A DNA stretch of 32,000 nucleotides. It comes from Candidatus Methanoperedens sp. (lineage in GTDB: Archaea; Halobacteriota; Methanosarcinia; Methanosarcinales; Methanoperedenaceae). A program made the translations under genes and the position numbers. The notes beneath the pieces are model-generated. The model saw only the letters and a list, made by a program, of their open reading frames with translations. It did not search any database and was not told where the DNA came from. The stretch's first letter is position 1. Each line of letters begins with the position of its first letter. The stretch lies in assembly GCA_041648475.1 (NCBI GenBank), contig JBAZOV010000006.1:29503-61502 (forward strand), read 5' to 3'. Positions 8,741 to 31,844 of the stretch are shown here, piece after piece.

Positions 8741-8965
8741 TTAAATAAGTTTGTATAAATCATCAATTGTTATTTCTGAATCTCTCAATAATTTTCTGAG
8801 TAAACCTTTTCCGATCACTTTATGGTTTGGTATGGAAAGCGGATTTTTTGAACTATCTGATTGATGCTTCATTCGAATATGGCTGCCGGTTTGCCTGACC
8901 GTAACATAGCCCAATTTTCCAAATGCCTTTACTGCATCTTTACCAGATATGACAGGTAATTTCAT
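8741..8965 (-). CDS. hicA: HicA-like mRNA interferase toxin
   Basis: 74 aa with 'SGKDAVKAFGKLGYVTVRQTGSHIRMKH' (YcfA/HicA dsRBD-like fold with conserved His). 4-nt overlap with the upstream hicB. Confidence 0.8.
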   Translation of the reverse strand: MKLPVISGKDAVKAFGKLGYVTVRQTGSHIRMKHQSDSSKNPLSIPNHKVIGKGLLRKLLRDSEITIDDLYKLI

Positions 8966-9207
8966 GCTTCGACTGCTACCGTATGGAAACTGAATTCCTG
9001 GATATGTGCAATATTAGAAATTTCGTCCTCGCTCTCTTCTTCAAGACACATTTCTATTACTTCACGTATATTCTTGAGAGCTTCATCAAGAGTCTCTCCT
9101 TGAGAATAACAACCTTTTAAGAGTGGACATTCTACCACATAAAAACCATCTTCGTCTTTTTCAACAATTACAGGTAAAGTGATTTTCGTGGATTTTTTCC
9201 TTGCCAT
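8962..9207 (-). CDS. hicB: HicB-like antitoxin (UPF0150 type)
   Basis: 81 aa with 'LPVIVEKDEDGFYVVECPLLKGCYSQGETLDEALKNIREVIEMCLEE', the typical HicB N-terminal domain. Overlaps hicA. Confidence 0.8.
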   Translation of the reverse strand: MARKKSTKITLPVIVEKDEDGFYVVECPLLKGCYSQGETLDEALKNIREVIEMCLEEESEDEISNIAHIQEFSFHTVAVEA

Positions 9208-12568: not shown

Positions 12569-12573
12569 GGTAT

Positions 12574-13296: not shown

Positions 13297-15682
13297 TCTA
13301 AAATCCCATCCGGATAAATTTTTAATTGTTCACCTTAGAAATGTGGGTTTATTTTGTAAAAATACTATACAATCCAAGAAAATCAACTCGAATATTTTCA
13401 ATTTAAACGATGAAATCTTGGCCGATTTTTCATTTATAACAGGGGTTTCACATGATTTTGGAAAAGGAACAATTAATTTTCAAAATTACATAAATGAAAA
13501 AGACGAAAAACGAAAAAGTTCGCTTAAAAATAATCCTGAAACAAGACATGGACTACTTTCTTCGTTATTTACTTACTTTGTTATAAAAGAATCTCTTAAA
13601 GATTTAAAATTAGAATTTTTACCGATGTTAGGTTATTTTGCAGTAAAAAAACATCATGGAAACTTAGGAGATGTAACAGATGAAATCTTAGACTTAGATG
13701 ATAAAAATGTAGAAATCTTAAACCGGCAAATTAATTCTTTGTGTTTAGAAGAACTCAAACTGATTTATTTGGAATTATTACCAAATATTGATATAATTAA
13801 ATTTATTAATACCTATAAAAGCATTATCAAAGAAATCAAAAGCAACAGAAGAACTTTTTCTGATCATCTGCAAAATGAGAAATCCATCCAAGGGGATGCG
13901 CCTGGATTACAATATTATCTTTTGACACAACTTTTTTATTCTATTCTTTTAAATTCCGATAAATTAGATGCTTCGGGTATTCAAGAAATTGACCGTAATA
14001 ATGCGATTCCTATAGATTTGGTTGATAATTATCGAATAATCAAAGGCTATGATAAACCAAAAAGTAAAATGGATATTATTCGAAATGAGATTTATTCAGA
14101 TGTCATAGGAGAATTAAAAAATTTAAGTTTAGATAATAATATTTATTCCTTGAATGTTCCGACTGGAACAGGAAAAACACTTACTGCATTATCTTTTTCT
14201 TTAAAACTGAGGGATAGGATTAAAAATGAAAGACATTTCATGCCTAAAATCATATATTCACTTCCTTTTTTAAGTATTATAGATCAAAATTTCGAAGTTT
14301 TTGAAGATGTTTTTAAAAAAGTTCAGGGATATACTCCAACAACCGATATTTTATTGAAGCATCACCATTTATCTGATATTTTTTATGAAACTAATGAAAA
14401 TGTTGAATACGATACTTCTGAAAGTTTGTTACTAATTGAGGGCTGGAACTCTGAAATAATTGTAACTACTTTTATACAACTCTTCCACTCTTTAATTTCA
14501 AATAAAAATAGGTCGTTAAGAAAATTTCATAACATTATAAATTCAATTGTTATTCTTGACGAGGTTCAATCAATTCCTCATGAATATTGGCTTTTATTCA
14601 AAGAAGTTATCTCATTATTTTCAAAATGCTTCAACACTTATTTTATTTTTGTAACTGCGACGCAGCCATTGATTTTTGATGAAAGCAAGAAAGAAATTGT
14701 TGAACTTGTAAAAAATAAAAAATATTATTTTGATAAATTTGATAGAATTGAATTAATACCAAACCTTCAACCTTTGCTTCTCAATAATTTTAAAGAACTC
14801 ATAAGAAGGGATGTTGAAGAAAATAAAGATAATAATTTTCTTATTGTACTTAATACAATAAATTCTTCAAAAAGTGTCTATCAATATTTAGAATCATTAA
14901 AAATTGCAGGCACAAAATTATATTATCTTTCCACAAACATCACTCCTTGCCAGCGTCTTGATAGAATAAACGATATAAGAAATAATAAAGCACGAAAAAT
15001 AATTGTTAGCACTCAACTTATTGAAGCTGGAGTGGATATTGACGTTGATACTGTTTATCGTGACTTTTCAACGATGGATTCAATAAACCAAGTTTCTGGA
15101 AGATGCAATCGAAATTATTCAGAGGGGAAGAAAGGGCTGGTAAAATTATTTATTCTGAAAGATGAAAATAAAGAATATTATAGGTATATCTATTCACCTT
15201 TTCTGATCGATAAAACTAAAGAAGTCCTCAAAGAAGTTCCTGAAAGAATAAGTGAAAATTACTTTTTAACCTTAAGCAATAAATATTTTAAAAAAATCAA
15301 AGACAGTGGAAGTGATGACGCATCTAATAAGATCCTTTCATTTGTTCAAAAATTAGAATTTGAACAGCTATATAAAAATTTTAAACTTATACAAGATGAC
15401 TACTATAAAATCGATGTATTTATCGAATTGGACTATTTTGCTAAAGCTGTATGGAATCAATATAAGGCAATAAAAGAACTAAAAAATCCACTTGAGAGAA
15501 AAAATGAATTCTTAAAAATAAAAAAAGATTTCTATGAATACGTAATTTCAATCCCCAAAGATAAGGCACCTAAGCCTGAGAATGAAACTGGGATAGCCTA
15601 TGTTTCAATGGAAGAATTAAAATATAGGTATGATTTAGAAACTGGATTCATACCAGGGTCAGGAGGAACCTTACTGTTTTAA
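13247..15682 (+). CDS. cas3: Cas3 HD nuclease-helicase fusion
   Basis: HD motifs 'VSHDFGKGT', 'KKHHGNLGD', 'NSDKLDAS'. Helicase motifs 'NVPTGTGKT', 'VILDEVQ', 'QVSGRCNR'. The real start may be ATG 13274 (MNQSSFF...) rather than TTG 13247. Confidence 0.92.
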   Translation: MIDIGNWKLMNQSSFFNLKSHPDKFLIVHLRNVGLFCKNTIQSKKINSNIFNLNDEILADFSFITGVSHDFGKGTINFQNYINEKDEKRKSSLKNNPETRHGLLSSLFTYFVIKESLKDLKLEFLPMLGYFAVKKHHGNLGDVTDEILDLDDKNVEILNRQINSLCLEELKLIYLELLPNIDIIKFINTYKSIIKEIKSNRRTFSDHLQNEKSIQGDAPGLQYYLLTQLFYSILLNSDKLDASGIQEIDRNNAIPIDLVDNYRIIKGYDKPKSKMDIIRNEIYSDVIGELKNLSLDNNIYSLNVPTGTGKTLTALSFSLKLRDRIKNERHFMPKIIYSLPFLSIIDQNFEVFEDVFKKVQGYTPTTDILLKHHHLSDIFYETNENVEYDTSESLLLIEGWNSEIIVTTFIQLFHSLISNKNRSLRKFHNIINSIVILDEVQSIPHEYWLLFKEVISLFSKCFNTYFIFVTATQPLIFDESKKEIVELVKNKKYYFDKFDRIELIPNLQPLLLNNFKELIRRDVEENKDNNFLIVLNTINSSKSVYQYLESLKIAGTKLYYLSTNITPCQRLDRINDIRNNKARKIIVSTQLIEAGVDIDVDTVYRDFSTMDSINQVSGRCNRNYSEGKKGLVKLFILKDENKEYYRYIYSPFLIDKTKEVLKEVPERISENYFLTLSNKYFKKIKDSGSDDASNKILSFVQKLEFEQLYKNFKLIQDDYYKIDVFIELDYFAKAVWNQYKAIKELKNPLERKNEFLKIKKDFYEYVISIPKDKAPKPENETGIAYVSMEELKYRYDLETGFIPGSGGTLLF

Positions 15683-15812
15683 TTATGATTTTCCACATCT
15701 TCACCCCCGCCCCCTCTCCTCGCTTCCCCCAGGTGCGGTGCATGCGGACAGGCGGCGCAAAGAGCATACGGAGAAAACATATGATCAGGCAAACTTACCA
15801 ACGATTTAATAA

Positions 15813-15842
15813 ATCTGCGTTCATCTGCGTTTATCTGCGGTT
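15813..15842. repeat. Three phased 10-bp tandem units ATCTGCG(ttc/ttt/gtt)
   Basis: Read directly: atctgcgttc atctgcgttt atctgcggtt. The reverse-complement motif CGCAGAT also occurs twice at 2839-2845 and 2858-2864. Confidence 0.7.
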
Positions 15843-15984
15843 TGTTTTAGTCTATATTTTACCGCCATATTTCGCAAACAAACCCGCGCCTGCAAGCGAT
15901 AGCGCCGGATTTTTAACACAGTTAAATGATATATTTTTAAAAATAAACTATGCGAGGAAATATGGAATATAATACTAACCTCCA

Positions 15985-16074
15985 TAGTTTGAATAGAACA
16001 CGGATGACGCGGATCGCGCGGATTTTCGCGGATCCGTGCGCATCCGTGTCATCCGTGCAATCCGCGTTCTATCG
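15985..16074. repeat. Structured CGGAT-rich palindromic element, copy B, downstream of cas3
   Basis: Four [A/G]CGGAT units on the + strand are followed by three inverted ATCCG[T/C]G units. The outer arms are ATAGAAC (15993-15999) and GTTCTAT (16066-16072). Its first 30 nt match 9352-9381 at 29 of 30 positions. Confidence 0.7.
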
Positions 16075-16198
16075 TACGATTTCTCACCTTTTTTTATACA
16101 CCAAAGTTAACAAAACTGATAACTATGGTGCATTAAAATATAAAAATGAAATCCCAGGACAGATTTACAAACAACCATTGATTACCAGAAAACCCCGC

Positions 16199-16249
16199 CA
16201 ACGGCGGCGCACATCCGGGGTCTGGGGGTCGCAACCCCCAGCGCCGTTG
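16199..16249. other. Nested GC-rich hairpin
   Basis: Outer stem CAACGGCG (16199-16206) pairs with CGCCGTTG (16242-16249). Inner stem CTGGGGG (16222-16228) pairs with CCCCCAG (16235-16241) around the loop TCGCAA. Confidence 0.55.
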
Positions 16250-16300
16250 TTGAAGCAGATAAAGAGTGAAAATGTATAAAATAGAAATAAATAGCCATTC

Positions 16301-16308
16301 TTTAAATA
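16301..16308 (+). promoter_or_regulatory. Candidate TATA box (TTTAAATA) for the MNT-HEPN-cas6 operon
   Basis: An AT-rich box lies about 24 nt upstream of ATG 16329/16332. This would give a leaderless or near-leaderless mRNA, which is common in archaea. Confidence 0.3.
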
Positions 16309-16328
16309 ATTATAAATCAGAAGGAATA

Positions 16329-16775
16329 ATGATGAAAAATCAAATTGTTCATGTGCCAAAAATGAACGACCAAAATAAATCGAAAATAGACCTCAACGAA
16401 GTGATCCTTAAACTCAAGAGTTCCAGACTGGTTCACTCCATCATCCTTTTTGGATCAAAGGCAAGAGAAACTGAGAAAGAAAATAGCGATATAGACATAT
16501 GTGTCATTCCAAAACCTGACGTTGAAATTACACTCAAAGAGAGAATATCCATTAACAATTCTGTTCCGGAGAATATCGATATTTCATTCATAGATGAATT
16601 ACCAGTCTATATTCGTAAAAGGATTTTTCTCGAAGGGAAGGTCCTATACACGCAGGACATGTATCATGTACTAACACTTTCAAAGATCAATGACCTGGAA
16701 TATGAACGGTATAAAAGGCTCACCGGGGAGTACCATAAGCATGTAATGGAACGCATTAGAGCCAGATTGAGGTGA
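16329..16775 (+). CDS. Minimal nucleotidyltransferase (MNT), partner of HEPN
   Basis: NTase motif 'LFGSKARETEKENSDIDICV' (GS...DxD). The ORF track start 16266 adds 21 poorly protein-like residues, so I prefer ATG 16329 behind the TATA-like box. Confidence 0.8.
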   Translation: MMKNQIVHVPKMNDQNKSKIDLNEVILKLKSSRLVHSIILFGSKARETEKENSDIDICVIPKPDVEITLKERISINNSVPENIDISFIDELPVYIRKRIFLEGKVLYTQDMYHVLTLSKINDLEYERYKRLTGEYHKHVMERIRARLR

Positions 16776-16780
16776 TAATT

Positions 16781-17203
16781 ATGGATAATGATAGATTATT
16801 GGAAAAGATAGATGAAATGGAAAACTATCTGAGGGAACTTGAGGAATATCTTCCAGAACAAGAAGAAGATTATCTGAATAATGGTCTCAGGAAACGAGCA
16901 TGTGAACGTGCTTTCCAGCTGTCATGTGAGAATTTGCTTGATATATGCAATTTGATCATATCCGAGAAAGGATTTGGAATGCCGTCTGATAGTAAAGATA
17001 GTGTCAGGAAGCTTGCAGAAAATAAAATATTACCAGCGCCACTTTCAACAAGGCTTGAAGAACTTGTCGGATTTCGAAATCTTCTTGTTCATCAATATGG
17101 CCGTGTGGATGATTCGAGGTCATATTCTTTTCTAAACATGGAATTGAAGGATTTTTATGAATTTATAGAAATCATTGACAGGTACATAGAAACTAAAATA
17201 TGA
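16781..17203 (+). CDS. HEPN-domain protein (DUF86 family), toxin of the HEPN-MNT pair
   Basis: Rx4-6H motif 'FRNLLVHQY'. ATG 16781 is preceded by GGTGA (16771-16775), which overlaps the MNT stop codon. The ORF track alternative is GTG 16772. Confidence 0.85.
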   Translation: MDNDRLLEKIDEMENYLRELEEYLPEQEEDYLNNGLRKRACERAFQLSCENLLDICNLIISEKGFGMPSDSKDSVRKLAENKILPAPLSTRLEELVGFRNLLVHQYGRVDDSRSYSFLNMELKDFYEFIEIIDRYIETKI

Positions 17204-17865
17204 ACCTCAAAACCTTCACCCTCACCTTTGCCTCCAATCGTCCCATAGAAGGCACATCAACACAGCTTCGCGGCTTCTTCGCCACGAAATTCAACGAATA
17301 CACCCTTCTCCACCAGCACAACGCCGATAAATTCATTTACAGCTATCCTCTGGTACAATACAAAATGATAAACGGCGCGCCCATGGTCATCGGCATCAAT
17401 GACGGTGCCGAGGTTTTAAAACAAGTTTATGATAAATACGAAGAGATAAAACTTGGGGACGAAGTTTATGAAATCGTTGAAAGGGGCATTTCCGTAAAGA
17501 ACCAGGAATTCGGGCTCTCAGATAAGATATATTCCTATGAGTTCGCTACTCCATGGCTTGCTCTTAACCAGGAGAACTATATGAAATATTATGGTTTGAA
17601 GGATGGCGGGGAAAGGCTTGAGTTCCTGAGAAAAACACTAACTGGAAATTTGCTGTCCATGTCGAAATCACTGGAATACATGGTTCCCGATAAAATAAAA
17701 TGCGATGTACAGGTAAATATCAGGAAACGCAGATTGAAAGACGTGAACGTAATGACCTTTATCGGAGGATTCCAGGCAAACTTCATAATACCAGATTATC
17801 TCGGTTTGGGGAAATCGGTTTCAAGAGGTTTTGGCGCAGTTGTCATGAAAAATGATCTGAAATGA
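17200..17865 (+). CDS. cas6: Cas6 crRNA endoribonuclease (Cas6b-like), copy 1
   Basis: 221 aa with 'LRGFFATKF', 'LLHQH', 'YPLVQYK' and the C-terminal Gly-rich loop 'GLGKSVSRGFGAV'. ATGA overlap with the HEPN stop codon. Confidence 0.85.
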   Translation: MNLKTFTLTFASNRPIEGTSTQLRGFFATKFNEYTLLHQHNADKFIYSYPLVQYKMINGAPMVIGINDGAEVLKQVYDKYEEIKLGDEVYEIVERGISVKNQEFGLSDKIYSYEFATPWLALNQENYMKYYGLKDGGERLEFLRKTLTGNLLSMSKSLEYMVPDKIKCDVQVNIRKRRLKDVNVMTFIGGFQANFIIPDYLGLGKSVSRGFGAVVMKNDLK

Positions 17866-17950
17866 ACTTTAATAATATATACTAAAGCTGACAAATATGA
17901 TAACTCATGATAAAATGAAACAATATTATCAAAATAAAAGTGGCTGATCA

Positions 17951-19263
<1,313 letters not shown>

Positions 19264-19273
19264 GGATTGGACT

Positions 19274-19864
19274 ATGCCGGCAGGAGATACGATAATAACT
19301 ATTTCGGATGTGCTTGAATACCTTTTCTGCCCGCGTTTTATTTATTTCATGCATTGTCTTGACATCCCGCAGAATGAGGGATCAAGGTTCAAGGTCATAA
19401 AAGGCAGAGAAGTGCATGATGAAAAACGAATTACAAACACCGAATACCTGAGAAAGAAGCTTGGCGTTGTCAAAAAAGAAATTAATGTTTTCATAGCCTC
19501 GAAAAACCACCATATCAAAGGGATCGTGGATGAGATCCTTTTCCTGGATGATGGAACTGCGGCACCTTTTGAATATAAGTATGCTGAATTCAAGGATACT
19601 ATATTCCAGACTTATAAATTCCAGCTTGTGCTTCATGCAATGATGATCAAAGAGAACTATAATATCGATGTAAAAAAAGGTTTCATCTGTTTCACAAGAA
19701 GCAATAATCATATAGAAGAAATTGTTTTTACAGAAAAAGACTTCAAGAAAGGCATCGAGATCATTGATGAAATCCTTGAGATCATTGACAAAGGCTTTTA
19801 TCCGGGAAAGTCCAAATATAAGAATAAGTGCATTGATTGCTGTTACAGCAACATCTGTGTCTGA
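19274..19864 (+). CDS. cas4: Cas4 (RecB-like nuclease with Fe-S Cys cluster)
   Basis: 196 aa with N-terminal 'CPRFIYF', D-EYK nuclease core ('VDEILFLDDG...PFEYKY') and C-terminal 'CIDCCYSNIC'. Confidence 0.9.
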   Translation: MPAGDTIITISDVLEYLFCPRFIYFMHCLDIPQNEGSRFKVIKGREVHDEKRITNTEYLRKKLGVVKKEINVFIASKNHHIKGIVDEILFLDDGTAAPFEYKYAEFKDTIFQTYKFQLVLHAMMIKENYNIDVKKGFICFTRSNNHIEEIVFTEKDFKKGIEIIDEILEIIDKGFYPGKSKYKNKCIDCCYSNICV

Positions 19865-19972
19865 TTTTCTTGTCTTTAAATACTAATCTATAATTTTGCA
19901 GCAAGAAATCCAACCGCAAAAACTAAGCCCTATTAACACCTATTTTGCCTTAAACAGGTGAAAATCTGTGGT
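19865..19972 (+). promoter_or_regulatory. CRISPR leader with TATA-like boxes (TTTAAATA 19875-19882, TCTATAAT 19887-19894)
   Basis: AT-rich 108-nt spacer between the cas4 stop and repeat 1. The degenerate terminal repeat sits at the opposite end of the array. Confidence 0.6.
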
Positions 19973-22900
19973 ATTCGAGAGGCACATCCACTAAAACAAG
20001 GATTGAAACACCAATAATTCTTCGATATCATGTTATCATCCCCATATTCGAGAGGCACATCCACTAAAACAAGGATTGAAACCAGTTGAAGCAATAGTTG
20101 TATTTACAACGTTTGAAATTCGAGAGGCACATCCACTAAAACAAGGATTGAAACCAAAGTCGAGTCATTCACGCATAGCGTGGGCTTGATTCGAGAGGCA
20201 CATCCACTAAAACAAGGATTGAAACTTTGTTTCTGGATCTCTTCTATAACTTGAGCTTCAATTCGAGAGGCACATCCACTAAAACAAGGATTGAAACATT
20301 ATGTTCATGCTTTCATACCCCCCTTAAATCAACATTCGAGAGGCACATCCACTAAAACAAGGATTGAAACGTCATAAGTATTTCAAGATGCCTGATGGCT
20401 TTGAAGAATTCGAGAGGCACATCCACTAAAACAAGGATTGAAACCGAGCTAAGGAACCACGGCGACTCAGGAGGATACGATTCGAGAGGCACATCCACTA
20501 AAACAAGGATTGAAACCATACACCCCACACATTTGTGTTTCATGCCAGCATATTCGAGAGGCACATCCACTAAAACAAGGATTGAAACTCGATACCAACC
20601 AATGTCCGGAGTTTAAACCCCTTAATTCGAGAGGCACATCCACTAAAACAAGGATTGAAACTTTGTTTCTGGATCTCTTCTATAACTTGAGCTTCAATAA
20701 TTCGAGAGGCACATCCACTAAAACAAGGATTGAAACCAACGACAGCCAGTGATGTTTTATTGGACTCCGCTATTCGAGAGGCACATCCACTAAAACAAGG
20801 ATTGAAACCGAGCTAAGGAACCACGGCGACTCAGGAGGATACGCGAATTCGAGAGGCACATCCACTAAAACAAGGATTGAAACTCATTCATGCTTTCACC
20901 TCGATCTTAACCTGCTGACATTCGAGAGGCACATCCACTAAAACAAGGATTGAAACATCGGATTAATCCCTCTTTCATTGTTTGTACCTCCAATTCGAGA
21001 GGCACATCCACTAAAACAAGGATTGAAACATCGGGACGGCATGTTGACATGGGTTCGACTCCCAATTCGAGAGGCACATCCACTAAAACAAGGATTGAAA
21101 CAGAGGTTTGTGGCTTGCGTGTGGCCTAAGTCATTCACAGATTCGAGAGGCACATCCACTAAAACAAGGATTGAAACTATCTTCAATGAAGCTAAGAAGC
21201 AACAAGGGGAAGAATTCGAGAGGCACATCCACTAAAACAAGGATTGAAACTAAATTAAATTTACATCGTCTGATAATGATATACATTCGAGAGGCACATC
21301 CACTAAAACAAGGATTGAAACATCTCAAAGAAAGGAAAAAGAAATCGTGAGATTATAATTCGAGAGGCACATCCACTAAAACAAGGATTGAAACCATGGA
21401 TGCAGTCAGGCGATCAGAAGTTTTCATCATATTCGAGAGGCACATCCACTAAAACAAGGATTGAAACTCCCTATACGCCCCTTGTAGCGATGCTGACCGG
21501 GTATTCGAGAGGCACATCCACTAAAACAAGGATTGAAACCATTTGAGCCGTAAACGCTTATGTTTGAAGTTGCGTATTCGAGAGGCACATCCACTAAAAC
21601 AAGGATTGAAACATATTTGGTGTTGAATTGACAAAAAGTAATGATGTATTCGAGAGGCACATCCACTAAAACAAGGATTGAAACATTAGTATCGAGGGCG
21701 GTGCAACTTTAGCTACAAAATTCGAGAGGCACATCCACTAAAACAAGGATTGAAACTTTAACCTCCTCATAATAAGAGTATTTTGCGTTTTAAATTCGAG
21801 AGGCACATCCACTAAAACAAGGATTGAAACTATGGGCGCGACCAGTTGCCAGTATAATCGAACAGAATTCGAGAGGCACATCCACTAAAACAAGGATTGA
21901 AACAGTAATTCCTCTGGGAACAGCGGAGTAAATCCCGATTATTCGAGAGGCACATCCACTAAAACAAGGATTGAAACAACGGATATTGCAGATACCGAGC
22001 GGGAGATCCGGGATTCGAGAGGCACATCCACTAAAACAAGGATTGAAACGAAAAGAACCACGATACACCACCTCCCAAGCCCTCTATTCGAGAGGCACAT
22101 CCACTAAAACAAGGATTGAAACTCAGTATGCTCTTCATGTGGTATTAAGACTGATATATTCGAGAGGCACATCCACTAAAACAAGGATTGAAACCTGATG
22201 ATGTTGGGGATATTAAAGACAAGCTGACAAGATTCGAGAGGCACATCCACTAAAACAAGGATTGAAACTTTATAGCAGTAGCGACTAATAATTCACAGTC
22301 ACATTCGAGAGGCACATCCACTAAAACAAGGATTGAAACTGCCAGTCATGCGCTAACAATGAAGATGCAAGTATATTCGAGAGGCACATCCACTAAAACA
22401 AGGATTGAAACTTCTATTGATAGGGGGCATTCTTGGAACGCTATATATTCGAGAGGCACATCCACTAAAACAAGGATTGAAACCCTGTTGAGCGTTACCT
22501 TCGCTACTAATGCTGTATATTCGAGAGGCACATCCACTAAAACAAGGATTGAAACCTATAATATGATAACGAGGCTGCATCTACTTGTGTTGATTCGAGA
22601 GGCACATCCACTAAAACAAGGATTGAAACTCTGTATATACTAATGATGTGGCCGTAACTTCACTATTCGAGAGGCACATCCACTAAAACAAGGATTGAAA
22701 CTTGATGAGAATTTCGAATTTGATATTGAGGTTGAAATTCGAGAGGCACATCCACTAAAACAAGGATTGAAACTTTGATCTTCTGGTTTCATATTTGCTC
22801 CAAAAATTTATTCGAGAGGCACATCCACTAAAACAAGGATTGAAACAGCATCGTTCGCTGAAGGTGCCTGATAAAATAGAATTCGAGAGGCACATCCACT

Positions 22901-24516
22901 AAAACAAGGATTGAAACACAGCGTATACTCGTATCAGGAGGAATAGAGAATGGTATTCGAGAGGCACATCCACTAAAACAAGGATTGAAACAATATATAA
23001 TACTGATGGAACAAAATATGCTGCGCTTGAATTCGAGAGGCACATCCACTAAAACAAGGATTGAAACTCATGACGGCTCAAATGAAAGATGATTATATTG
23101 TATTCGAGAGGCACATCCACTAAAACAAGGATTGAAACTTGACGGCTAAAATCAAGCTGTCAGTAATCTCTTTTATTCGAGAGGCACATCCACTAAAACA
23201 AGGATTGAAACATTCACTGCGTCAACAGCTTCAACGTGGGTGAGCTGATTCGAGAGGCACATCCACTAAAACAAGGATTGAAACTAAGTAGAGAGGTAAA
23301 TACTCTATGGTAAAATCAATATTCGAGAGGCACATCCACTAAAACAAGGATTGAAACTTCCAAATTCATTATTTCCATCTATATACTCGTCTAATTCGAG
23401 AGGCACATCCACTAAAACAAGGATTGAAACATTATATCTTTGTCTGTATTATATTGTTCTAAACATATTCGAGAGGCACATCCACTAAAACAAGGATTGA
23501 AACAAAAGAAGTTACTTACCTTAGGTGATATTTCTGTTGAATTCGAGAGGCACATCCACTAAAACAAGGATTGAAACCATGGATTATAATGGGACAGCTT
23601 TCCATTTAGTGAAATTCGAGAGGCACATCCACTAAAACAAGGATTGAAACTATCCGATAGCGAAAATAAGACCTAACCCCTCCATGAATTCGAGAGGCAC
23701 ATCCACTAAAACAAGGATTGAAACTAAAAGCGTTTATTCGAGTACTAAAACCACAATGGAATTCGAGAGGCACATCCACTAAAACAAGGATTGAAACTCT
23801 CATCTTGAAAACTATAAATTAAGAAGATTGTAATTCGAGAGGCACATCCACTAAAACAAGGATTGAAACTCGCTATGGAAAATTGGCTTATTAGAGTAAG
23901 GTCATTCGAGAGGCACATCCACTAAAACAAGGATTGAAACATACTTTGTTGTTATCGTTTCCAACTCCTTCCCAGATTCGAGAGGCACATCCACTAAAAC
24001 AAGGATTGAAACTTTAAAATGTAGATTATCGCAAAGGGTAAACATTATTCGAGAGGCACATCCACTAAAACAAGGATTGAAACCCATTTTATTCCTCCTA
24101 ATTTTACCTTGTTTCAGGATTCGAGAGGCACATCCACTAAAACAAGGATTGAAACAATTAAGCATTGTGAACCTGATAATTCAATAATAGGATTCGAGAG
24201 GCACATCCACTAAAACAAGGATTGAAACGTCATATCTTTCGTTTCTTCGGTGTTTTCTTGCCATATTCGAGAGGCACATCCACTAAAACAAGGATTGAAA
24301 CTTAATAGAACGTGATGAGAATGAAAATAGACAGAAATTCGAGAGGCACATCCACTAAAACAAGGATTGAAACCTTCAAGGCTGATATCGTCGGTTGTCG
24401 CTGCTGGTATTCGAGAGGCACATCCACTAAAACAAGGATTGAAACAAAATAGTATATTGCCATCCGTTGCGGTTGGCGTATTCGAGAGGCACATCCACTA
24501 AAACAAGGATTGAAAT
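19973..24516 (+). CRISPR. CRISPR array: 63 repeats of 37 nt (ATTCGAGAGGCACATCCACTAAAACAAGGATTGAAAC) and 62 spacers of 34-39 nt
   Basis: I walked every repeat start by hand. Repeat plus spacer lengths sum exactly to 4544 nt. The last repeat (24480-24516) ends ...GAAAT instead of ...GAAAC. The ATTGAAAC 3' end gives the canonical 8-nt crRNA 5' handle. From memory, the repeat resembles the Methanosarcina 37-nt repeat family. Confidence 0.98.
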
Positions 24517-24603
24517 AATATTAAATGGAAAATTTTAAATATGATGATATGACAATAGTAAAATCTGAAGGTAATTAACCTTTATATTCTTTAATGGGAT
24601 GGA

Positions 24604-26772
24604 TTGATGGTCGAAGATGAATTAATTCCGGAACTTCATGATATTGGAAAGTTGATTGATTGGGAAACAATTAATCCTGATATCAAAGGACATAATTTCG
24701 AAAACGTGAATATGAATAATATTATTCATATTCAAGAACCATCAAACAAAACTTGGAAAGGTATAAAACTACACCACAAGAAAAGTGGAGATATTGATAT
24801 TTTTATATTAAAGCTTGCAGACCATATAGCATCTGGAATTTCAAGAGCACTTCCCGAAGATGTCAAAGATAGAATTAATCGTATATTTAAATGGGATAAA
24901 ATCCCTGGAACAGATGATGATAAACTTCGGCGTTTCCTTATTGATGAATTGAATATCTCTTGGGCAGATGAATCATCATTTATTAAGAGTTCTGAAAATA
25001 AAATTATACTGTCCTCTAAAGGGAAATTTGTCGATATTACAAGAGACGATATTACAAAAAAAGCCATTTTACGAATTCATGATGGTAGAACCTATGAGTT
25101 AAGTATCCTCAAGAATAAAGAAGACGAGATAGAGATTCATAGACAAAAAATCGATAAGTCTTTTCAAAAGCTATGGAATGAACGACCAAAAAATTCTGAA
25201 TTATTCTCAACAAAAGACCAGTTAAAGGAAATAATCGAGTATATTAAAAAAGACAATTCTGGAGAATTATTCCTTGCAAATGATTTGTTCCATAAAAAAT
25301 TATTATCAACACCTGAAGACCAGATGCCTCCCATGAATATTACCAGTTTATATACTCATTCAAAACTTGTGGGAAAACTTTATTATTTCTTCAAACCATT
25401 GGTTACTGACATTAATTGCGAAAATAATTTATTGCAGTTTAGGTCTTCCGATGAATCAATAAATGTCCAAAATGCTGAAAGAAAATGGGATTTGGGTAGG
25501 AATATAAAAAATGCGGAAACAAATTGGGATATTAAATTATTATATTGTAAGATTAACTTTCCTGATTATCAAGCACGAGTTCGAGATTTAAATATTTTTG
25601 AACTACTAAAAAAGGAATTAGAAAAGTTATCTAAAGCTAAAAATGTAATATTGCAAACATCCGACCAATTCTTAGCATTCCTACCTGTGGATAAAAAAAT
25701 TGATGATTTGGTAAAACCATTTATAGAAAAAGGATTCAATATATATGTGGAAGAAGCCATAACCAAATTACAGGAAGCCACTCCCACCCCAAGAGCTATC
25801 AAACAAAGAAAAATGAACACTGGTCTCTCAATAGATGGAAATAGTAATTTTGATGTCCAATTCTCATGCTATACTAAATACAAATATATGGAGCCATTAA
25901 TAGACCCACATATTTGTGAAATATGCCAGTTAGCTCCTGCATCTGAACCACCATGGATTGATGAAGGACTGGTCGAAAATATTTGTGTATCTTGTCGAAA
26001 AATTAGAGAATATGATGAATCCGTAGCCCCACAATTAAAAGATTGGTATCAAAGCGAACAGCTCTCAAAGGTCGCTTGGATTAAAATTTACTTGGATATT
26101 AATTTATTAAGTGATATTCTTAAAAAACTATACAAATCATATAGTGATAAATACATAAAAGATATAGATTTGAAAGCTGAAATTGAACAGAAAGATTTAT
26201 ACGAATTACATTTCTCTGTCCTTACAGAATTTCAGCAAGATTATGATGATTTCCTAATAGATTTCAATAAAAAAATCGAATACAAATTTAAACTTGAAAA
26301 TATTCAGCCGATTCTTAACGATTTTATTTGCGTAAAAATTGAAAGAACAAGCCAAATAAAAGATATACTTGAAATATACAACCAGCTTTTCACAAATTAT
26401 TTTCCACAATTGAAAGACCAAAAATCTCCAGTTACTCTTTCGATTTCAGTGTCCAATGTAAAATTTGCCTTTTTCAGGCATTGGAAAAACTTTGAAAACC
26501 CAAAAAATGATGTGAATGTAAATCTCATTGGAAGGGGCGAAATGCACCTTTCTTTAAACCTGCTCGAAAAACTAATACACGAGTTCAAAATACCTGCATC
26601 CAAGCAACTGCACAAGCTTGCAAAGATTTCTGAAGCCTCAGAAAAACTGGCAAAAGTTCTTGTTTATGACAGAGGAGATTATAGAGTTTATGAATCGGTC
26701 AGAGTTCTGAGCAATAAGATTGATTTTAAAACAATTCTGACATATGCAAAAATCATGGGGGATGAAGAATGA
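24604..26772 (+). CDS. cas10: Cas10-like large subunit: HD domain intact, cyclase (GGDD) motif absent
   Basis: 722 aa. Motifs in order: 'ELHDIGKL' (H12-D13), 'LKLADHIASGISR', 'ITSLYTHSKLVGKLYYF', 'TSDQFLAFLP', 4-Cys 'CEICQ...CVSCRK', 'VAWIKIYLDINLL'. 'PILNDFICV' sits where GGDD is expected. No GGDD/GGDEF string occurs anywhere in the protein. Confidence 0.8.
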   Translation: MMVEDELIPELHDIGKLIDWETINPDIKGHNFENVNMNNIIHIQEPSNKTWKGIKLHHKKSGDIDIFILKLADHIASGISRALPEDVKDRINRIFKWDKIPGTDDDKLRRFLIDELNISWADESSFIKSSENKIILSSKGKFVDITRDDITKKAILRIHDGRTYELSILKNKEDEIEIHRQKIDKSFQKLWNERPKNSELFSTKDQLKEIIEYIKKDNSGELFLANDLFHKKLLSTPEDQMPPMNITSLYTHSKLVGKLYYFFKPLVTDINCENNLLQFRSSDESINVQNAERKWDLGRNIKNAETNWDIKLLYCKINFPDYQARVRDLNIFELLKKELEKLSKAKNVILQTSDQFLAFLPVDKKIDDLVKPFIEKGFNIYVEEAITKLQEATPTPRAIKQRKMNTGLSIDGNSNFDVQFSCYTKYKYMEPLIDPHICEICQLAPASEPPWIDEGLVENICVSCRKIREYDESVAPQLKDWYQSEQLSKVAWIKIYLDINLLSDILKKLYKSYSDKYIKDIDLKAEIEQKDLYELHFSVLTEFQQDYDDFLIDFNKKIEYKFKLENIQPILNDFICVKIERTSQIKDILEIYNQLFTNYFPQLKDQKSPVTLSISVSNVKFAFFRHWKNFENPKNDVNVNLIGRGEMHLSLNLLEKLIHEFKIPASKQLHKLAKISEASEKLAKVLVYDRGDYRVYESVRVLSNKIDFKTILTYAKIMGDEE

Positions 26773-27797
26773 ATTTCTTTAAGTTTGATTTTAGTTCTGA
26801 ATTGCTCATTCTTGGAGAAAGATTTAAAAAAGGACAGTATCGCCCTGTTATCACAACAATTCCTTATAGCCAGATTACAGGCGCGCTTCAGGCGAAATTT
26901 GGAAACAGCAAAAATGCCGATAAGTCAAAGCAAATCCATGCATGTGGACATTTTTTATATAAAGATGAGGATGAATTCAAGGAGAATCACATTAAGACGC
27001 TCACCTATTCCCCTCGAAACAGGTCAACTGATACCAGTATAATTCCTATTTATACCGAATATCTTCATCGTGTAAAAGGCGAGGTATATCTGAAAGAAAA
27101 TGAAGATGTAAAAGAGATATTATCTCAGAAAGGAGAGATAAGTTTCTGGATGGGCGGATTGAAATCCAAAGGTTTTGGGGAGTGTAAACTAATTAATAAA
27201 GAAATTGTTCCCCGTGCTGATTCCAGAGAAGGTGAATTAAATACCAGATTGCCACTTTTTAAGCTTAATGATGCGAATTTTGAAGCTGGAAAAGAGGAAA
27301 TTGAAAAACTTGTTGAAGAAGGCAAGCCAACCAGATTCTTACATGATGTTTTTGGAATTGAACGGGTGAAAACAGCAAATTTCGGATATCTTTTTGAACC
27401 TACATCAGAAACAGATGGTAAGTATGTGCTTTCATTATTTGAAGGCAGCATAGTTGAAGCGCCAGGATTTTTATTGAAAATAAAGGGTGAAAAAAAGATG
27501 GAAGATCAAACAGAGGATGTTGCCGCAAAGGTTATTGAAGAAATTAAGAAAAATGTAAATATTGAATCTATTAAACAGAGATCAAATAAGTTCCTGAATA
27601 CTGTTGGGGATATTTTCGAAAAGGAAGGTCCAACCATGACCAGGGCATTTTTGAAGGAGAAAAAGAGCAGAAGAGGTATGGAGCAACAGGCAGAAACGCT
27701 TCTTCATGTACTTGGAATCATTGAAAAATATCCATCTATAGACAGAAAAACTGCACGGTTTATAATAAAAAGTTTGATAAGTATAAAGGAGGTTTGA
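26769..27797 (+). CDS. Cas5-like RAMP (Csm4/Cmr3/Csx10-like) with a helical C-terminal extension
   Basis: 342 aa with 'IPYSQITGALQAKFG' and the Gly-rich loop 'GGLKSKGFGECKL'. The last ~100 aa are charged and helical. 4-nt overlap with the cas10-like gene. Confidence 0.6.
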   Translation: MNFFKFDFSSELLILGERFKKGQYRPVITTIPYSQITGALQAKFGNSKNADKSKQIHACGHFLYKDEDEFKENHIKTLTYSPRNRSTDTSIIPIYTEYLHRVKGEVYLKENEDVKEILSQKGEISFWMGGLKSKGFGECKLINKEIVPRADSREGELNTRLPLFKLNDANFEAGKEEIEKLVEEGKPTRFLHDVFGIERVKTANFGYLFEPTSETDGKYVLSLFEGSIVEAPGFLLKIKGEKKMEDQTEDVAAKVIEEIKKNVNIESIKQRSNKFLNTVGDIFEKEGPTMTRAFLKEKKSRRGMEQQAETLLHVLGIIEKYPSIDRKTARFIIKSLISIKEV

Positions 27798-27801
27798 GAA
27801 A

Positions 27802-28605
27802 ATGATTGAACAAAAAGAATATGAAATTGAATTGACAACTTTAGAACCTATTCGAATCGGGGGAATAGCAAATCCCTTATCGGGAATAGATAACCCGATA
27901 GCTCTTGTGGGCAATGAGGTGGTTGTTCCGGGTTCTACCCTCAAAGGTGCTTACCGCTGCGAAATTGAGAGATACCTGATTGATACCTATTTAGATCGTG
28001 TTGCAAAAAAATGGTCGGATAAAAATCTTCAACCTTGCATACCTTCAACAAAGCTTTCTCCTGATGAAAATCAGCTTGTGGTGAATGGGTTATATAGATT
28101 CTATAACTTAATCCCTCCGAAAGGAGGAGATATAGGAGATATCAAAGGAGAAGGCTGTCACTATCCATGCCATGGAAAATGCAACGAACTGCATGAGATT
28201 TGTCCGGTTTGTTATTTCCTCGGGGCAAATGGACTTGAAGGATTCGTAAAGGTGCCTTTTTTGTATGCAAAAACAGCAGTTAATGAACTATATTCGGCAA
28301 ATATTGATCGGGCAATCCAGACTGTAAAACAGGGGACAAACAGACCATACCAATTGGTGCCTGACGGTATTAAATTCACAGGTACCTTGACAGTTATTCT
28401 TAAAGACACTATTAGAGATAGGGAACTTGGAAAAGCGAGAAATCTTAAAGAGTATACTGGAGGAGATGCATGGCTTGCAAAGCCACGGTCAAGAGATGAT
28501 CTCATCAAGGAGTTTATTATTGACCGCTTTGTGAATATAAAAACCATTGGTGGTTACAAGTCAAAGGGATTTGGAAAGGTGGATATAAAAATAAAACAAA
28601 AATGA
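27802..28605 (+). CDS. Cas7 of the Csm3/Cmr4 type (single backbone subunit)
   Basis: 267 aa with 'GIDNPIAL' (D30), 'VPGSTLKGAYR', 'CPVCYFLGANG' and terminal 'GGYKSKGFGKVDI'. Strong AGGAGGT SD. Confidence 0.8.
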   Translation: MIEQKEYEIELTTLEPIRIGGIANPLSGIDNPIALVGNEVVVPGSTLKGAYRCEIERYLIDTYLDRVAKKWSDKNLQPCIPSTKLSPDENQLVVNGLYRFYNLIPPKGGDIGDIKGEGCHYPCHGKCNELHEICPVCYFLGANGLEGFVKVPFLYAKTAVNELYSANIDRAIQTVKQGTNRPYQLVPDGIKFTGTLTVILKDTIRDRELGKARNLKEYTGGDAWLAKPRSRDDLIKEFIIDRFVNIKTIGGYKSKGFGKVDIKIKQK

Positions 28606-28671
28606 AATATAATAATTTATAACTATATATGACTTAGGCGCCATATAGGATCAGTGTAGAACACAAAAAAA

Positions 28672-29331
28672 ATGGACATCCAGACTCTAACTCTAATCCT
28701 GAAAACAAAATACCCGGTAACGGAAAGCCCTGAAAAATTGCGGGGCTTCATCGGGAACAGATTCAAAAACCATCCTATTCTGCATCAGCATGCCGAAAAT
28801 GGTAAGAACTATTATCAATATCCAAAAGTTCAATACAAAATAATCGGAGGTACTCCTGTAATATTTGGAATCGAAGAAGGGGTAGAAATTTTGGAAAATA
28901 TATCGAAAGATATTGAAGTTCTCACTATTGGAAGTAAGAATTACATGATTGAAGAAAAACAGGTCATAACGAAAAAACAGGAATTTGGATGTTCTGATAC
29001 ATTTTTCCAGTACAGGTTTATAGTCCCCTGGTTAGCCTTGAATGAGACAAATTATGAGTCATATTTGAAGTCAGACCAAAAAAATAAAGTTGAACTCTTA
29101 CATAAAGTCTTAGCTGGCAATCTTCTCTCAATTTCTAAATCTCTTGGATATGTAGTGCTTGACCAGATCAAAGTTAAAACAAAATTATCTCCCATAAAAG
29201 TTTATTCAAAAGGTATTCCACTAATTGGTTTTGAGGGAGAATTCCAAACAAATTTCAAGATTCCTGATTATCTTGGTATTGGCAGATCAGTTTCACGGGG
29301 CTTTGGAGTTGCTCGTAGATGCAGCCTTTAA
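28672..29331 (+). CDS. cas6: Cas6 paralog, copy 2 (Cas6b-like)
   Basis: 219 aa, collinear with Cas6 at 17200-17865: 'LRGFIGNRF', 'ILHQH', 'YPKVQYK', 'VPWLALNETNY', 'GNLLSISKSLGY', 'IPDYLGIGRSVSRGFGV'. Confidence 0.85.
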   Translation: MDIQTLTLILKTKYPVTESPEKLRGFIGNRFKNHPILHQHAENGKNYYQYPKVQYKIIGGTPVIFGIEEGVEILENISKDIEVLTIGSKNYMIEEKQVITKKQEFGCSDTFFQYRFIVPWLALNETNYESYLKSDQKNKVELLHKVLAGNLLSISKSLGYVVLDQIKVKTKLSPIKVYSKGIPLIGFEGEFQTNFKIPDYLGIGRSVSRGFGVARRCSL

Positions 29332-29384
29332 TAAGTTCTTTTTCCAAATTCTTAAATATCAATAACAGATAAAAAGGCACTCCA

Positions 29385-30593
29385 ATGGATCTCAACAATT
29401 TCATAATCCTCTTCATCTTCAGCATAACCATCCCAATACTTTACATAAAACTTGTTTCAGGCTTTGTGGTTTCAATCATAGACCGACTCATAAATGCCAA
29501 TTTTGAGCTAAATCCAAATAAGTTCATTAATCTTGTAATAGGATACGGTATCGGGGCTCTCCTATTTTCATATATTTTTCATCAGTTCTTCAAGTATGGC
29601 GTAATATCCCTTACAGAAATCTCAAATGCCAGTCTCACAATGCCTTTCCTGGCTCTCACCTTCTGCTATTTCGCTCGAGTCATAACCAGGAGGAATGGGC
29701 GTTTTTCCGGGCGCATTTATGTCAGCGGGGTAACAGCCATTGCATCCCTGATATTCCTGGTCAATACCGCTATCGGATTAAAATCTCTTGGCGAGACACC
29801 TTCCGGTCTTTTCACTCAAATTTTTGCAATTGGTAGTGGACTTGAAAGCAGCCTGATCACAAGGATCGAACTTTCTCTGGAGTTCTTGAAAAGCTGGATA
29901 CCCACCATTACTCTGGGCAGTGTGTTAATGGCAACCTTCGGGGAACTGGCTGTCGTTCATTTCATGAAACCCAATATAAGATCACTCACTGCAGTGCTTG
30001 AGAAATTTCCATCTGACTTTTCGGTGATAACAGGAAATAACCAGATCGAGAATAAAATGAAGGAAATGACATCCCAGGGTGATGTTCTTTCCATCAAATG
30101 CATAACGAATACTTATAAAGCATTTGACACGATCCATTCAAACCTGGAGACACAGTGGAGGATATTATCCGGAAAAAATATCGTACCTGATTACAGGATT
30201 ATCGGGTCATCCCGGCAGGAGATCAAGGAATATTTCAATAAAAAGAAAATCACAAATTTCGGAACGATCCTCGGAAAGATATATCAAAAATTGATGCCTG
30301 GATACTATGCTGGTTATTTGACCCGCGAAGAAAAGGATGTTGAGAAACGAATTTCAAAACTAAGGGAAATGCGTAATGAAGGTCGAATTAAACATCTTGA
30401 TACAAGTTTTGGCAGATTCAAGATGCTTCTTGTTAATGATAATGAAGTAATTTTCACGGTATTGAGTGGAAAAAATGAGACGATAGGACTGTACACAAAA
30501 GAAAAATATATTCTATTTCTTTGTTTAAAATTATTCGATGATACGTGGGAACGTAATCAAACTGCAGATGTGCTTAATAAAAAGACTAATTAA
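29385..30593 (+). CDS. Multi-pass membrane protein with a ~200-aa C-terminal soluble domain, unknown function
   Basis: 402 aa with about 5-6 hydrophobic segments in residues 1-195, followed by a soluble domain with a duplicated '[IV]LSGKN' string. Co-oriented, 53 nt after cas6 copy 2. Confidence 0.6.
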   Translation: MDLNNFIILFIFSITIPILYIKLVSGFVVSIIDRLINANFELNPNKFINLVIGYGIGALLFSYIFHQFFKYGVISLTEISNASLTMPFLALTFCYFARVITRRNGRFSGRIYVSGVTAIASLIFLVNTAIGLKSLGETPSGLFTQIFAIGSGLESSLITRIELSLEFLKSWIPTITLGSVLMATFGELAVVHFMKPNIRSLTAVLEKFPSDFSVITGNNQIENKMKEMTSQGDVLSIKCITNTYKAFDTIHSNLETQWRILSGKNIVPDYRIIGSSRQEIKEYFNKKKITNFGTILGKIYQKLMPGYYAGYLTREEKDVEKRISKLREMRNEGRIKHLDTSFGRFKMLLVNDNEVIFTVLSGKNETIGLYTKEKYILFLCLKLFDDTWERNQTADVLNKKTN

Positions 30594-30819
30594 TACTATC
30601 TTCGATCCTGCCAAAAAGTGGTTTCAACAATAGCTGATCTGAAACGAAAATTATCAACATCAGCAGTACAATATATGCTTCCTTGGCAAGGCTGATAATA
30701 TCTATGGAATACAATATTAATGATACAAATATCAACCCAAAAGCAATGGTTGATAAGCACATATTGCTTAATCCGAATATTTTTTCCATAACTTTATGCA
30801 TATAGAACCTTCTAGCCAT
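30586..30819 (-). CDS. Small hypothetical membrane ORF (2 TM)
   Basis: 77-aa ORF convergent with, and overlapping by 8 nt, the membrane protein gene. It has hydrophobic helices only; coding status is uncertain. Confidence 0.3.
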   Translation of the reverse strand: MARRFYMHKVMEKIFGLSNMCLSTIAFGLIFVSLILYSIDIISLAKEAYIVLLMLIIFVSDQLLLKPLFGRIEDSIN

Positions 30820-30978
30820 GAATATGACCTTTTAAGGATTATTTTCTGTTGATTGTTTATTGATGGTACTAACCCTTAAAGTTTATGGTCATTTCATTTT
30901 GTGGAAAAGTGTCCATAGTGTCAATAAACCGTTAGAGTTACCCTCCAAGCTCTCCACTCCCGTTTCCAATCGAAAGAG

Positions 30979-31015
30979 ATTCGAGAGGCACATCCACTAA
31001 AACAAGGATTGAAAC
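30979..31015 (+). repeat. Solitary CRISPR repeat identical to the array consensus
   Basis: All 37 nt match the consensus, in the same orientation as the array. It lies 6462 nt downstream of the terminal repeat, and I found no second repeat after it. Confidence 0.95.
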
Positions 31016-31044: not shown

Positions 31045-31587
31045 CTACTTGGAGTTAGAGAATTTTTTGAGGACAGCCAAAAGCCCTTCGTCCTTTGCCT
31101 TTTCGGTTAAATATTCAAAATCGACCCTGCTCTGGTAATATCGAAGCAGGTAATGAGCTTGTTTGCAGTCCGTTTCTGATTTCCATTCATGGCAGGCTGC
31201 CAGCCTATCTATGATCAAGTCCTCGATCCCAATTATATAGAGTTTTAAACCCTCAACAGTCATCGTTGTTATTTTGTCTTTGCTTCCAGCTAAGTAATCC
31301 CCCGGCACTTCTATGAAAATACCTATTGTTTCATCGATCCAATGCCTTCCGCTGCGTTTAAATCCAAACGTATTCTCAAGGATATCACCGATTATTTTCC
31401 GGCTTCCTACAAGGTCTATATCATAACTCTGGAAAACACCGTTCGTATAGAAATCAACTGCTGACCCGCCCACAACGATAGGTTTTATGTTTTTTTTCTC
31501 AGTTTCACGGGTAAGGAGTGACATGAAATACGCTTTTTTATCTACCAGATTTTTGATGGATAATATTTTTTGTAATTCGGGGATCAC
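31045..31587 (-). CDS. Nucleotidyltransferase-fold protein, putative toxin partner of the AbrB antitoxin
   Basis: 180 aa with 'IVVGGSAVDFYTNGVFQSYDIDLVG' (G[GS]...DxD NTase motif). GTG start overlaps the upstream AbrB gene stop (GTGA). Confidence 0.6.
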   Translation of the reverse strand: MIPELQKILSIKNLVDKKAYFMSLLTRETEKKNIKPIVVGGSAVDFYTNGVFQSYDIDLVGSRKIIGDILENTFGFKRSGRHWIDETIGIFIEVPGDYLAGSKDKITTMTVEGLKLYIIGIEDLIIDRLAACHEWKSETDCKQAHYLLRYYQSRVDFEYLTEKAKDEGLLAVLKKFSNSK

Positions 31588-31844
31588 GATAATCGCCGTT
31601 CCATTTCTCTTTTGCCTGTCCAGATCACGTTTTTATCTGCACTTGCTTTCATGATATTGTATAGTCCCTCTATCTCGTCTTTATCCCTTGGCTTGCGCCT
31701 GATCGCCTTGCTGGATGGACGGATTGATAGACAGCCATCGATTATAATCATATCCACTATTTCAGGCAGACCTAATTCTTTTAAAAGGGATTGAGGGATT
31801 ATTACCCCGCTACTATTGCCAATTTTGCGTATTCTTTGTTTCAT
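31584..31844 (-). CDS. AbrB/MazE/SpoVT-family antitoxin
   Basis: 86 aa with 'RKIGNSSGVIIPQSLLKELGL', the looped-hinge-helix signature. Confidence 0.8.
   Translation of the reverse strand: MKQRIRKIGNSSGVIIPQSLLKELGLPEIVDMIIIDGCLSIRPSSKAIRRKPRDKDEIEGLYNIMKASADKNVIWTGKREMERRLS

Follow-up and report, generated by a model that had tools for sequence, protein, structure and literature searches.

A solitary CRISPR repeat beyond the III-F effector module of a Candidatus Methanoperedens type I-B locus, a probable relic of a second array

Repeats and genes of the locus

The DNA analyzed here, referred to as the window, is a stretch of 32,000 nucleotides (nt) from Candidatus Methanoperedens sp. (GenBank assembly GCA_041648475.1, contig JBAZOV010000006.1, positions 29,503 to 61,502 of the forward strand); it contains a CRISPR array, a type III-F effector module behind it and, beyond both, one further copy of the array repeat. 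A search of the window with the 37-nt repeat ATTCGAGAGGCACATCCACTAAAACAAGGATTGAAAC returned 64 matches at up to three mismatches, all on the plus strand, where shuffled sequences are expected to give none. The array spans 19973–24516 on the plus strand and is composed of 63 repeats and 62 spacers of 34–39 nt, with 62 perfect repeat copies from 19973 to 24445. Its terminal repeat (24480–24516, plus strand) has a single mismatch, the last base being changed from C to T, and forms the left bracket of the interval under study; the right bracket is a solitary repeat (30979–31015, plus strand) that agrees with the array consensus at 37 of 37 positions. The solitary repeat is situated about 6.5 kb beyond the end of the 63-repeat array and on the same strand, and the interval between the two brackets measures 6462 nt (24517–30978), as the preliminary description of the locus had stated. 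It is a single copy, not the two or more repeats around a spacer that define an array.

An assembly artefact as the source of the lone repeat was ruled out by two other assemblies that are 100% identical across the junctions. In the first of them (L001; loci fetched for comparison are designated by L numbers), a 13.4-kb locus from an 80-kb MEGAHIT contig, 100% identical throughout, begins in the interior of the array, crosses the solitary repeat and reaches housekeeping genes, and in the second, a 100% identical Logan contig (L002), the ends coincide exactly with the two bracketing repeats. Its recovery in further assemblies means that the lone repeat is not the artefact of one assembler; L001 and L002 may stem from the same population.

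The main array is preceded by a leader (19865–19972, plus strand), which lies between the stop codon of cas4 and the first repeat. Three features place transcription of the array on the plus strand, which is also the direction of the bracketed genes: the 3' end of the repeat is ATTGAAAC, the leader sits behind cas4, and the one imperfect copy occupies the distal end. No self-targeting spacers were found in the main array. Two spacer pairs (20226–20260 with 20662–20699, and 20445–20479 with 20809–20846) have a common start and lengths of 35 and 38 nt, and apparently represent one protospacer each, taken up twice with differing 3' ends. Upstream of the leader, a type I-B cas operon (9702–19864, plus strand), annotated with Pfam, encodes cas8b, cas7, cas5, cas3, two small open reading frames (ORFs), an MNT/HepT pair, cas6b-1, cas1, cas2 and cas4. 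An orthologous I-B operon stands ahead of the array in L006 and L027, where the operon and an array of 5 and 57 repeats, respectively, are all located upstream of the III-F cassette.

Behind the array, four genes at 24607–29331 on the plus strand (cas10, a cas5–cas11 fusion, cas7 and cas6b-2) constitute a subtype III-F effector module. The product of cas10 (24607–26772, plus strand; 721 aa) has an N-terminal HD domain and no GGDD cyclase motif. It was matched by the Cas10a/Cas10f model of PADLOC (E = 9e-98), aligning with positions 80–584 of the 585 positions of the Cas10f model, and its AlphaFold2 model (mean predicted local distance difference test score, pLDDT, 79) found solely Csm1/Cas10 chains as best Protein Data Bank (PDB) matches in Foldseek (E = 1e-11). 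A profile built from 26 Cas10 homologues matches the Csm1 HD domain (E = 2.7e-8); the PELHDIGK motif and further His and Asp residues are invariant in all 26, and none of the 26 has GGDD or GGDEF at the Palm position. The second gene (26769–27797, plus strand; 342 aa) encodes a Cas5–Cas11 fusion, with the PADLOC model Cas5_IIIf matching residues 3–171 (E = 3.5e-42) and Cas11f residues 253–341 (E = 1.7e-19); the profile of the Cas5-like family had no match among PDB sequences. The cas7 gene (27802–28605, plus strand; 267 aa) is of the III-F type (PADLOC Cas7_IIIf, E = 2.2e-58; Pfam RAMPs). The fourth gene, cas6b-2 (28672–29331, plus strand), has the Pfam domains Cas6b_N and Cas6b_C and is the predicted CRISPR RNA (crRNA)-processing endonuclease of the module; at 44% identity to the I-B cas6b-1, it is not the product of a recent duplication. 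The scanned ORFs of the surrounding island gave no match to CARF or SAVED domains. The cassette thus combines the features of III-F: an HD Cas10, an inactivated Palm with no ancillary gene for sensing cyclic oligoadenylate (cOA), one Cas7, one Cas5 and Cas11f.

Several further observations concern the variability of this module. The fusion of Cas5 and Cas11 is seen in the Methanoperedens III-F modules, and distant loci encode a Cas5 of about 200 aa followed by a separate ORF of about 95 aa. Residue 30 of Cas7, the counterpart of Csm3's catalytic Asp in the alignment, is invariably Asp among the Methanoperedens III-F Cas7 proteins; family-wide, Asp occupies this position in 47 of 94 Cas7 proteins, the others having Glu, Lys, His, Asn or Gln. 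Judged from this residue, RNA cleavage may be kept in the Methanoperedens III-F clade and lost in others. Among the Methanoperedens-type loci (the window against L003, L005, L027 and L007), identity amounts to 47–55% for Cas10, 71–85% for Cas5–Cas11 and 81–89% for Cas7, and a beta-rich insertion of about 85 aa after the Cas10 HD domain, modeled with low confidence, is found in the window and L003 only. This suggests that the Cas10 large subunit is evolving fast or is mosaic.

Composition of the bracketed interval and of the surrounding island

At the left edge of the interval, a promoter-like element, ATGGAAAAT[T/G]TTAAATAT, lies at 24525–24542 on the plus strand between the terminal repeat and cas10. 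The element is BRE/TATA-like (B recognition element and TATA box) and, judging from its sequence, probably acts as a promoter. It is conserved at the same junction in the window, L003, L005 and L006, and the orthologous terminal repeat of the latter three has an 11-nt internal deletion. Because the junction between terminal repeat and cas10 promoter is common to all four loci, it is ancestral.

The right part of the interval is of foreign origin. An independent two-gene module of 1.57 kb (29340–30908) is composed of two convergent genes, a 402-aa membrane protein gene (29385–30593, plus strand) and a 77-aa small membrane ORF (30586–30819, minus strand). The segment is 96% identical to L131–L135, five other Methanoperedens assemblies in which it has a class I tRNA synthetase gene on one side and RuBisCO on the other, with cas genes absent nearby. 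An 85% identical copy in L137 (7955–9509) follows a III-C operon (Cmr1, Cmr6, Cas10c, Cmr4, Cmr5 and Cmr3), with its left boundary unchanged, and further contexts are provided by L136, L138 and L144; altogether, four or more other contexts of the module in related genomes are free of cas genes. Homology to it starts 9 nt past the cas6b-2 stop codon, at the very site where relatives carry a repeat relic, and stops 70 nt ahead of the solitary repeat. The other copies of the module carry no CRISPR repeat. As the module is 96% identical to one at a non-CRISPR location, the bracketed interval is composite and not one cassette. The preliminary description had therefore named the bracketed genes correctly, but the membrane gene and the small ORF that it included in the type III block form a separate module.

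The 402-aa gene was also considered as a fixed component of the type III block; this was ruled out by its unrelated contexts, though it recurs beside type III operons. The module adjoins two different cyclase-dead type III operons, III-F in the window and III-C in L137; elsewhere its neighbours are an nSTAND NTPase and an integrase, or simply housekeeping genes. The C-terminal domain of the 402-aa protein weakly resembles the phospholipase D (PLD) fold (Foldseek E of about 4e-3; PADLOC DrmC, E = 0.009), and the two genes may form a pair with an ancillary or a defence role. Between this module and the solitary repeat remains a 70-nt stretch (30909–30978) that is unique: neither it nor the flanks of the repeat showed homology in any fetched locus.

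Both cas modules belong to a defence island of variable content, which extends from about 8367 to about 32078 and has hisF on one side and the triose-phosphate isomerase gene on the other; the two modules have a G+C content of 34%, compared with 41% in the flanks. This island, about 23.7 kb in length, is missing altogether in the Methanoperedens relative L143, in which the gap between hisF and the triose-phosphate isomerase gene is about 0.6 kb; L141, a closer relative than L143, has other toxin-antitoxin genes at the island site. These two relatives indicate a hotspot of variable content. Homology to L141 restarts at 31759 and to L143 at 32079 (extended coordinates), which places the solitary repeat 0.75–1.06 kb inside the right edge of the island. 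In between lies a toxin-antitoxin-like pair (31045–31844, minus strand), composed of a DUF6036 nucleotidyltransferase (31045–31587) and an AbrB/MazE-like protein (31584–31844). It is one of three such pairs in the island, the others being HicA/HicB at the left edge (8741–9207) and MNT/HepT (16266–17203), the latter placed inside the I-B operon between cas3 and cas6b. Compared with L006, the island is mosaic: the I-B effector genes of the window are 97–99% identical, whereas cas6b-1 and cas1 are only 83–87% identical.

Repeats beside related cassettes and the origin of the solitary repeat

In four related loci, derived from Methanoperedens metagenome-assembled genomes (MAGs) and metagenome contigs, a decayed repeat begins 6–27 nt past the stop codon of the III-F cas6b. 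These relics were detected in L005 (p < 5e-4), where a repeat matching at 35 of 37 positions follows 49 nt further on, in L003 (p = 5e-4), in L052 (p < 5e-4) and in L027 (p = 0.03); L007 has none after cas6b. In the window itself, no relic was detected after cas6b-2 or beside the solitary repeat (p = 0.37–0.97). The cassette of L003 has relics on both sides and lies in a housekeeping neighbourhood, flanked by dnaJ and by an oxidoreductase gene; the 10 kb fetched in either direction contain no I-B genes. In L053, I-B cas1–cas2–cas4 are followed by the III-F cassette, a 107-nt gap and an array of at least seven repeats, with no repeat upstream of the cassette. The final ~37 nt of cas4 in L053 (about 9107–9143) are duplicated some 690 nt downstream (about 9790–9830), and an inserted segment is enclosed by the two copies in the region that separates cas4 from the III-F cas10.

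To extend the comparison across the III-F family, loci were collected by Cas10 alignment scans, which gave 123 loci (43 genomes and 80 metagenomes), 118 of them usable for an array survey. Arrays are present in 41 of the 118. A count from the survey list gives about 24 loci with a downstream and about 12 with an upstream array, and in 13 distant III-F loci the array starts between 19 nt inside and 368 nt past the last ORF of the cassette, on the same strand. Arrays of identical repeats on both sides of the cassette occur in L012/L057 (Hydrothermarchaeum) and L038 (Caloranaerobacter). When cassette-bracketing direct repeats were sought throughout the family, most loci gave none.

Two bracketing patterns emerged among distant members of the family. 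The III-F locus L043, from Nitrospirae, has three copies (6551–6612, 7524–7579 and 12503–12553) of a unit in which a degenerate terminal repeat is joined to a 20-nt trailer, CAGTCTAAGAGTCTAAAAGT (part of a hairpin); these copies bracket a PIN toxin-antitoxin pair first and the effector cassette next. In L028, from a WOR-3 bacterium, a 47-nt hairpin-containing element recurs at 9755–9801, 16011–16057 and 17420–17466 around the III-F cassette and the next gene. The bracketing repeats of L028 and L119 look like intergenic hairpin elements and not like CRISPR repeats.

Considering the relics after cas6b in relatives and the array that usually follows the cassette, the downstream repeat belongs to the array position of the cassette itself. 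We therefore regard the solitary repeat as probably a relic of the III-F module's own downstream array, moved 1.6 kb by the inserted module. The ancestral layout would have been cas–array followed by cas–array, i.e., two tandem CRISPR-Cas units with a common repeat: the I-B unit with its cas genes, leader and 63-repeat array, and then the III-F module, whose array would normally follow right behind the cassette and share its orientation. This second array may have collapsed to one or two repeats in the Methanoperedens lineage, and the copy at 30979–31015 would be a survivor of it; at a later step, the mobile two-gene module (29340–30908) would have been inserted between the cas6b stop codon and the surviving repeat. 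The bracket would accordingly be a by-product of the layout and not a footprint of cassette entry, the solitary repeat would be orthologous to the relics of relatives, and it would at present have no role beyond that of a possible Cas6b site or recombination substrate. An older array section reduced to a single repeat, the second scenario of the preliminary description, comes close to what the comparisons indicate, except that the repeat belongs to the cassette's own array position; the comparisons do not support the broader idea that the bracket traces how a second effector module was recruited to an existing I-B array.

Several points weigh against a relic of the module's own array. The window copy is perfect at 37 of 37 positions, whereas the relics of relatives are decayed (35 of 37 at best) and a passive relic should have changed; a recent array collapse, gene conversion from the 63-copy array or selection is thus needed to explain it. 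Since the 70-nt stretch beside it matches nothing, orthology with the relics is argued from position. With the relics starting 6–27 nt past the stop codon, a leader would not fit in between, and this tight spacing suits a cassette lying between adjacent repeats of one array equally well. Moreover, no relative within Methanoperedens itself was found with a multi-spacer array downstream of the cassette. A separate version of the second-array explanation, in which the repeat would be an empty array with its own leader, was ruled out, as no repeat family links 19865–19972 to 30820–30978 and a comparison by eye agrees.

The tight spacing also agrees with an alternative that we consider unlikely, namely that the III-F module entered the I-B array, or leaves and re-enters arrays, by homologous recombination between repeats, so that it resembles a giant spacer and the brackets derive from one ancestral array. 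Its bounds are indeed tight, with the terminal repeat about 10 nt from the promoter element and the relics 6–27 nt past the cas6b stop; in addition, the cassette of L003 has relics on both sides without neighbouring I-B genes, and the unit of terminal repeat and trailer is triplicated around the toxin-antitoxin pair and the cassette of L043. However, most III-F loci have a downstream array only and no bracket, L053 lacks a repeat upstream of its cassette, and part of the window's bracketed interval is an unrelated later insertion. The preliminary description had proposed to look for strains in which the array is uninterrupted or the cassette absent. Among the 144 fetched loci, in which close strains are sampled to a limited extent, no uninterrupted or cassette-free array was found at the same site, and the sole 'empty' relative, L143, lacks the entire island. 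Entry of a single effector cassette into the I-B array by recombination, the first scenario proposed for the locus, is hence not supported, in view of the composite interval, the ancestral left junction, the relics after cas6b and the want of a cassette-free array. Nor did a spacer remnant with a viral match come to light: the repeat and the 22-mers from both of its flanks had no match in IMG/VR, in a search that was limited to exact matches and is a weak test for that reason.

It is similarly improbable that the solitary repeat is kept by selection as a standalone binding or cleavage site of Cas6b, whether to set the 3' end of a read-through transcript, to titrate Cas6b, or to supply the 5' handle for a regulator that resembles a crRNA, similar to CreA or a mini-array. 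Its sequence is perfect beside unique non-coding DNA, a repeat-like element occupies the same post-cas6b position in four relatives, archaeal composite I-B loci commonly contain regulatory mini-arrays, often near toxin-antitoxin genes, and the toxin-antitoxin-like pair of the window is only 30 nt away. As in mini-arrays, a repeat-like sequence is present outside the array yet within the CRISPR-cas locus. On the other hand, there is one repeat only, and no second degenerate copy was found in the 70 nt upstream (p = 0.80) or the 120 nt downstream (p = 0.44). The repeat is separated from cas6b-2 by 1.65 kb, behind the insertion, and its flanks are unrelated to those of the L005 repeat. No significant RNA structure was predicted at the repeat and its surroundings (z-scores of -0.9 to +0.3). 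A regulatory guide beside the repeat was ruled out in particular, as the flanking 36-mers have no better-than-chance partial target in the island: the best non-self matches covered 20–22 of 36 positions with a best 5' seed of 9 nt, and such scores were reached in 30 of 30 shuffles for the downstream and 5 of 30 for the upstream 36-mer. The decay of the relics in relatives also argues against strong selection, and a published survey noted neither targets nor conservation for mini-arrays beside type III operons (bioRxiv 10.1101/2023.03.03.530964).

Selection might instead act on the pair of brackets. Flanking repeats could be a selected feature of the III-F modules of this clade, either because recombination between repeats can excise the cassette, delete it or carry it from array to array, or because Cas6b excises its transcript from a read-through pre-crRNA; under the latter variant, the effector genes could behave as a giant spacer. 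This would explain the perfect repeat of the window, the two-sided relics of L003 and the repeat-plus-trailer brackets of L043, but we hold it to be quite improbable. Very unlikely, finally, is a recent ectopic copy unrelated to the older relics, produced or renewed either through gene conversion, with the main array as donor, or in the recombination that brought the two-gene module: the repeat does agree with the present array consensus at 37 of 37 positions, including the G at position 5 that separates this lineage from L006, L027 and L051, and the island is mosaic relative to L006, yet no donor or junction evidence was found, other copies of the module carry no repeat, and the proposal overlaps with a relic origin instead of excluding it.

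Comparison with known systems and significance

The surroundings of cas6 in I-B loci, and likewise the flanks of type III operons, have been reported to be enriched in standalone repeats and mini-arrays, which occur in 37% of archaeal composite loci including I-B; the copies adjacent to type III operons were judged to be degraded, non-functional repeats (Shmakov et al., bioRxiv 10.1101/2023.03.03.530964). The solitary repeat of the window shares with these its place outside an array in an archaeal composite I-B and type III locus, near cas6, at the flank of a type III operon and with toxin-antitoxin genes nearby. It differs from the mini-arrays in being one perfect copy and not two divergent repeat-like sequences around a spacer, and in having no partial target in the island; in contrast to the general finding for type III operons, its presumed position after cas6b recurs in related genomes. 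Most likely, then, the solitary repeat is largely ordinary, standalone repeats in composite I-B and type III loci having already been documented. Compared with L012/L057 and L038, in which two arrays of identical repeats surround the same cassette, the second array of the window consists of one repeat, parted from the cassette by the inserted module. Solitary repeat units are also known as RNA anti-CRISPRs (Racr), which are encoded by viruses and plasmids (PMC10651486). Like these, the window copy is a lone CRISPR repeat, but it resides in a chromosomal island between hisF and the triose-phosphate isomerase gene and is without exact matches in IMG/VR.

The gene content of subtype III-F and its assignment go back to the 2020 classification. 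The module of the window resembles III-F in its HD Cas10 without cyclase motif, its single Cas7, its Cas5 and its Cas11f-type small subunit, and in having neither adaptation genes of its own nor a CARF or SAVED partner. It departs from it in the fusion of Cas11 to the C-terminus of Cas5, the presence of cas6b within the module and the location of the module behind a I-B array, at its trailer end. According to the 2025 classification update, in which subtype III-F is named, arrays are missing from most III-F loci (PMC12669027), as against arrays in 41 of 118 family loci here. The same update describes subtype III-H from archaeal MAGs, including Methanosarcinales, as distantly related to III-F (PMC12669027). 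The window module was initially assigned to III-H from that text, with which it agrees in an active-looking HD domain of Cas10, a dead Palm, Cas5 and Cas7 and the missing adaptation module; the assignment was dropped after the PADLOC matches to III-F and in view of the Cas5–Cas11 layout. By its published description (PMC12669027), III-H has a diverged Cas11 that replaces the C-terminal domain of Cas10, whereas here the Cas11f-like domain is part of the Cas5 protein.

Were selection acting on the bracketing repeat, it would provide a rare example of an effector operon delimited or mobilised by a CRISPR repeat. The relic origin that we favour would be of value for annotation and evolution, and it cautions against taking a lone repeat for an insertion scar. 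If it is correct, Methanoperedens pairs a I-B unit for adaptation and interference with a cyclase-dead HD III-F effector through a common repeat, and the III-F unit's own array decays while the I-B array grows. Its defence islands would then be put together from units that are separable: I-B, III-F or III-C, the pair with the membrane protein, and three pairs of the toxin-antitoxin-like kind.

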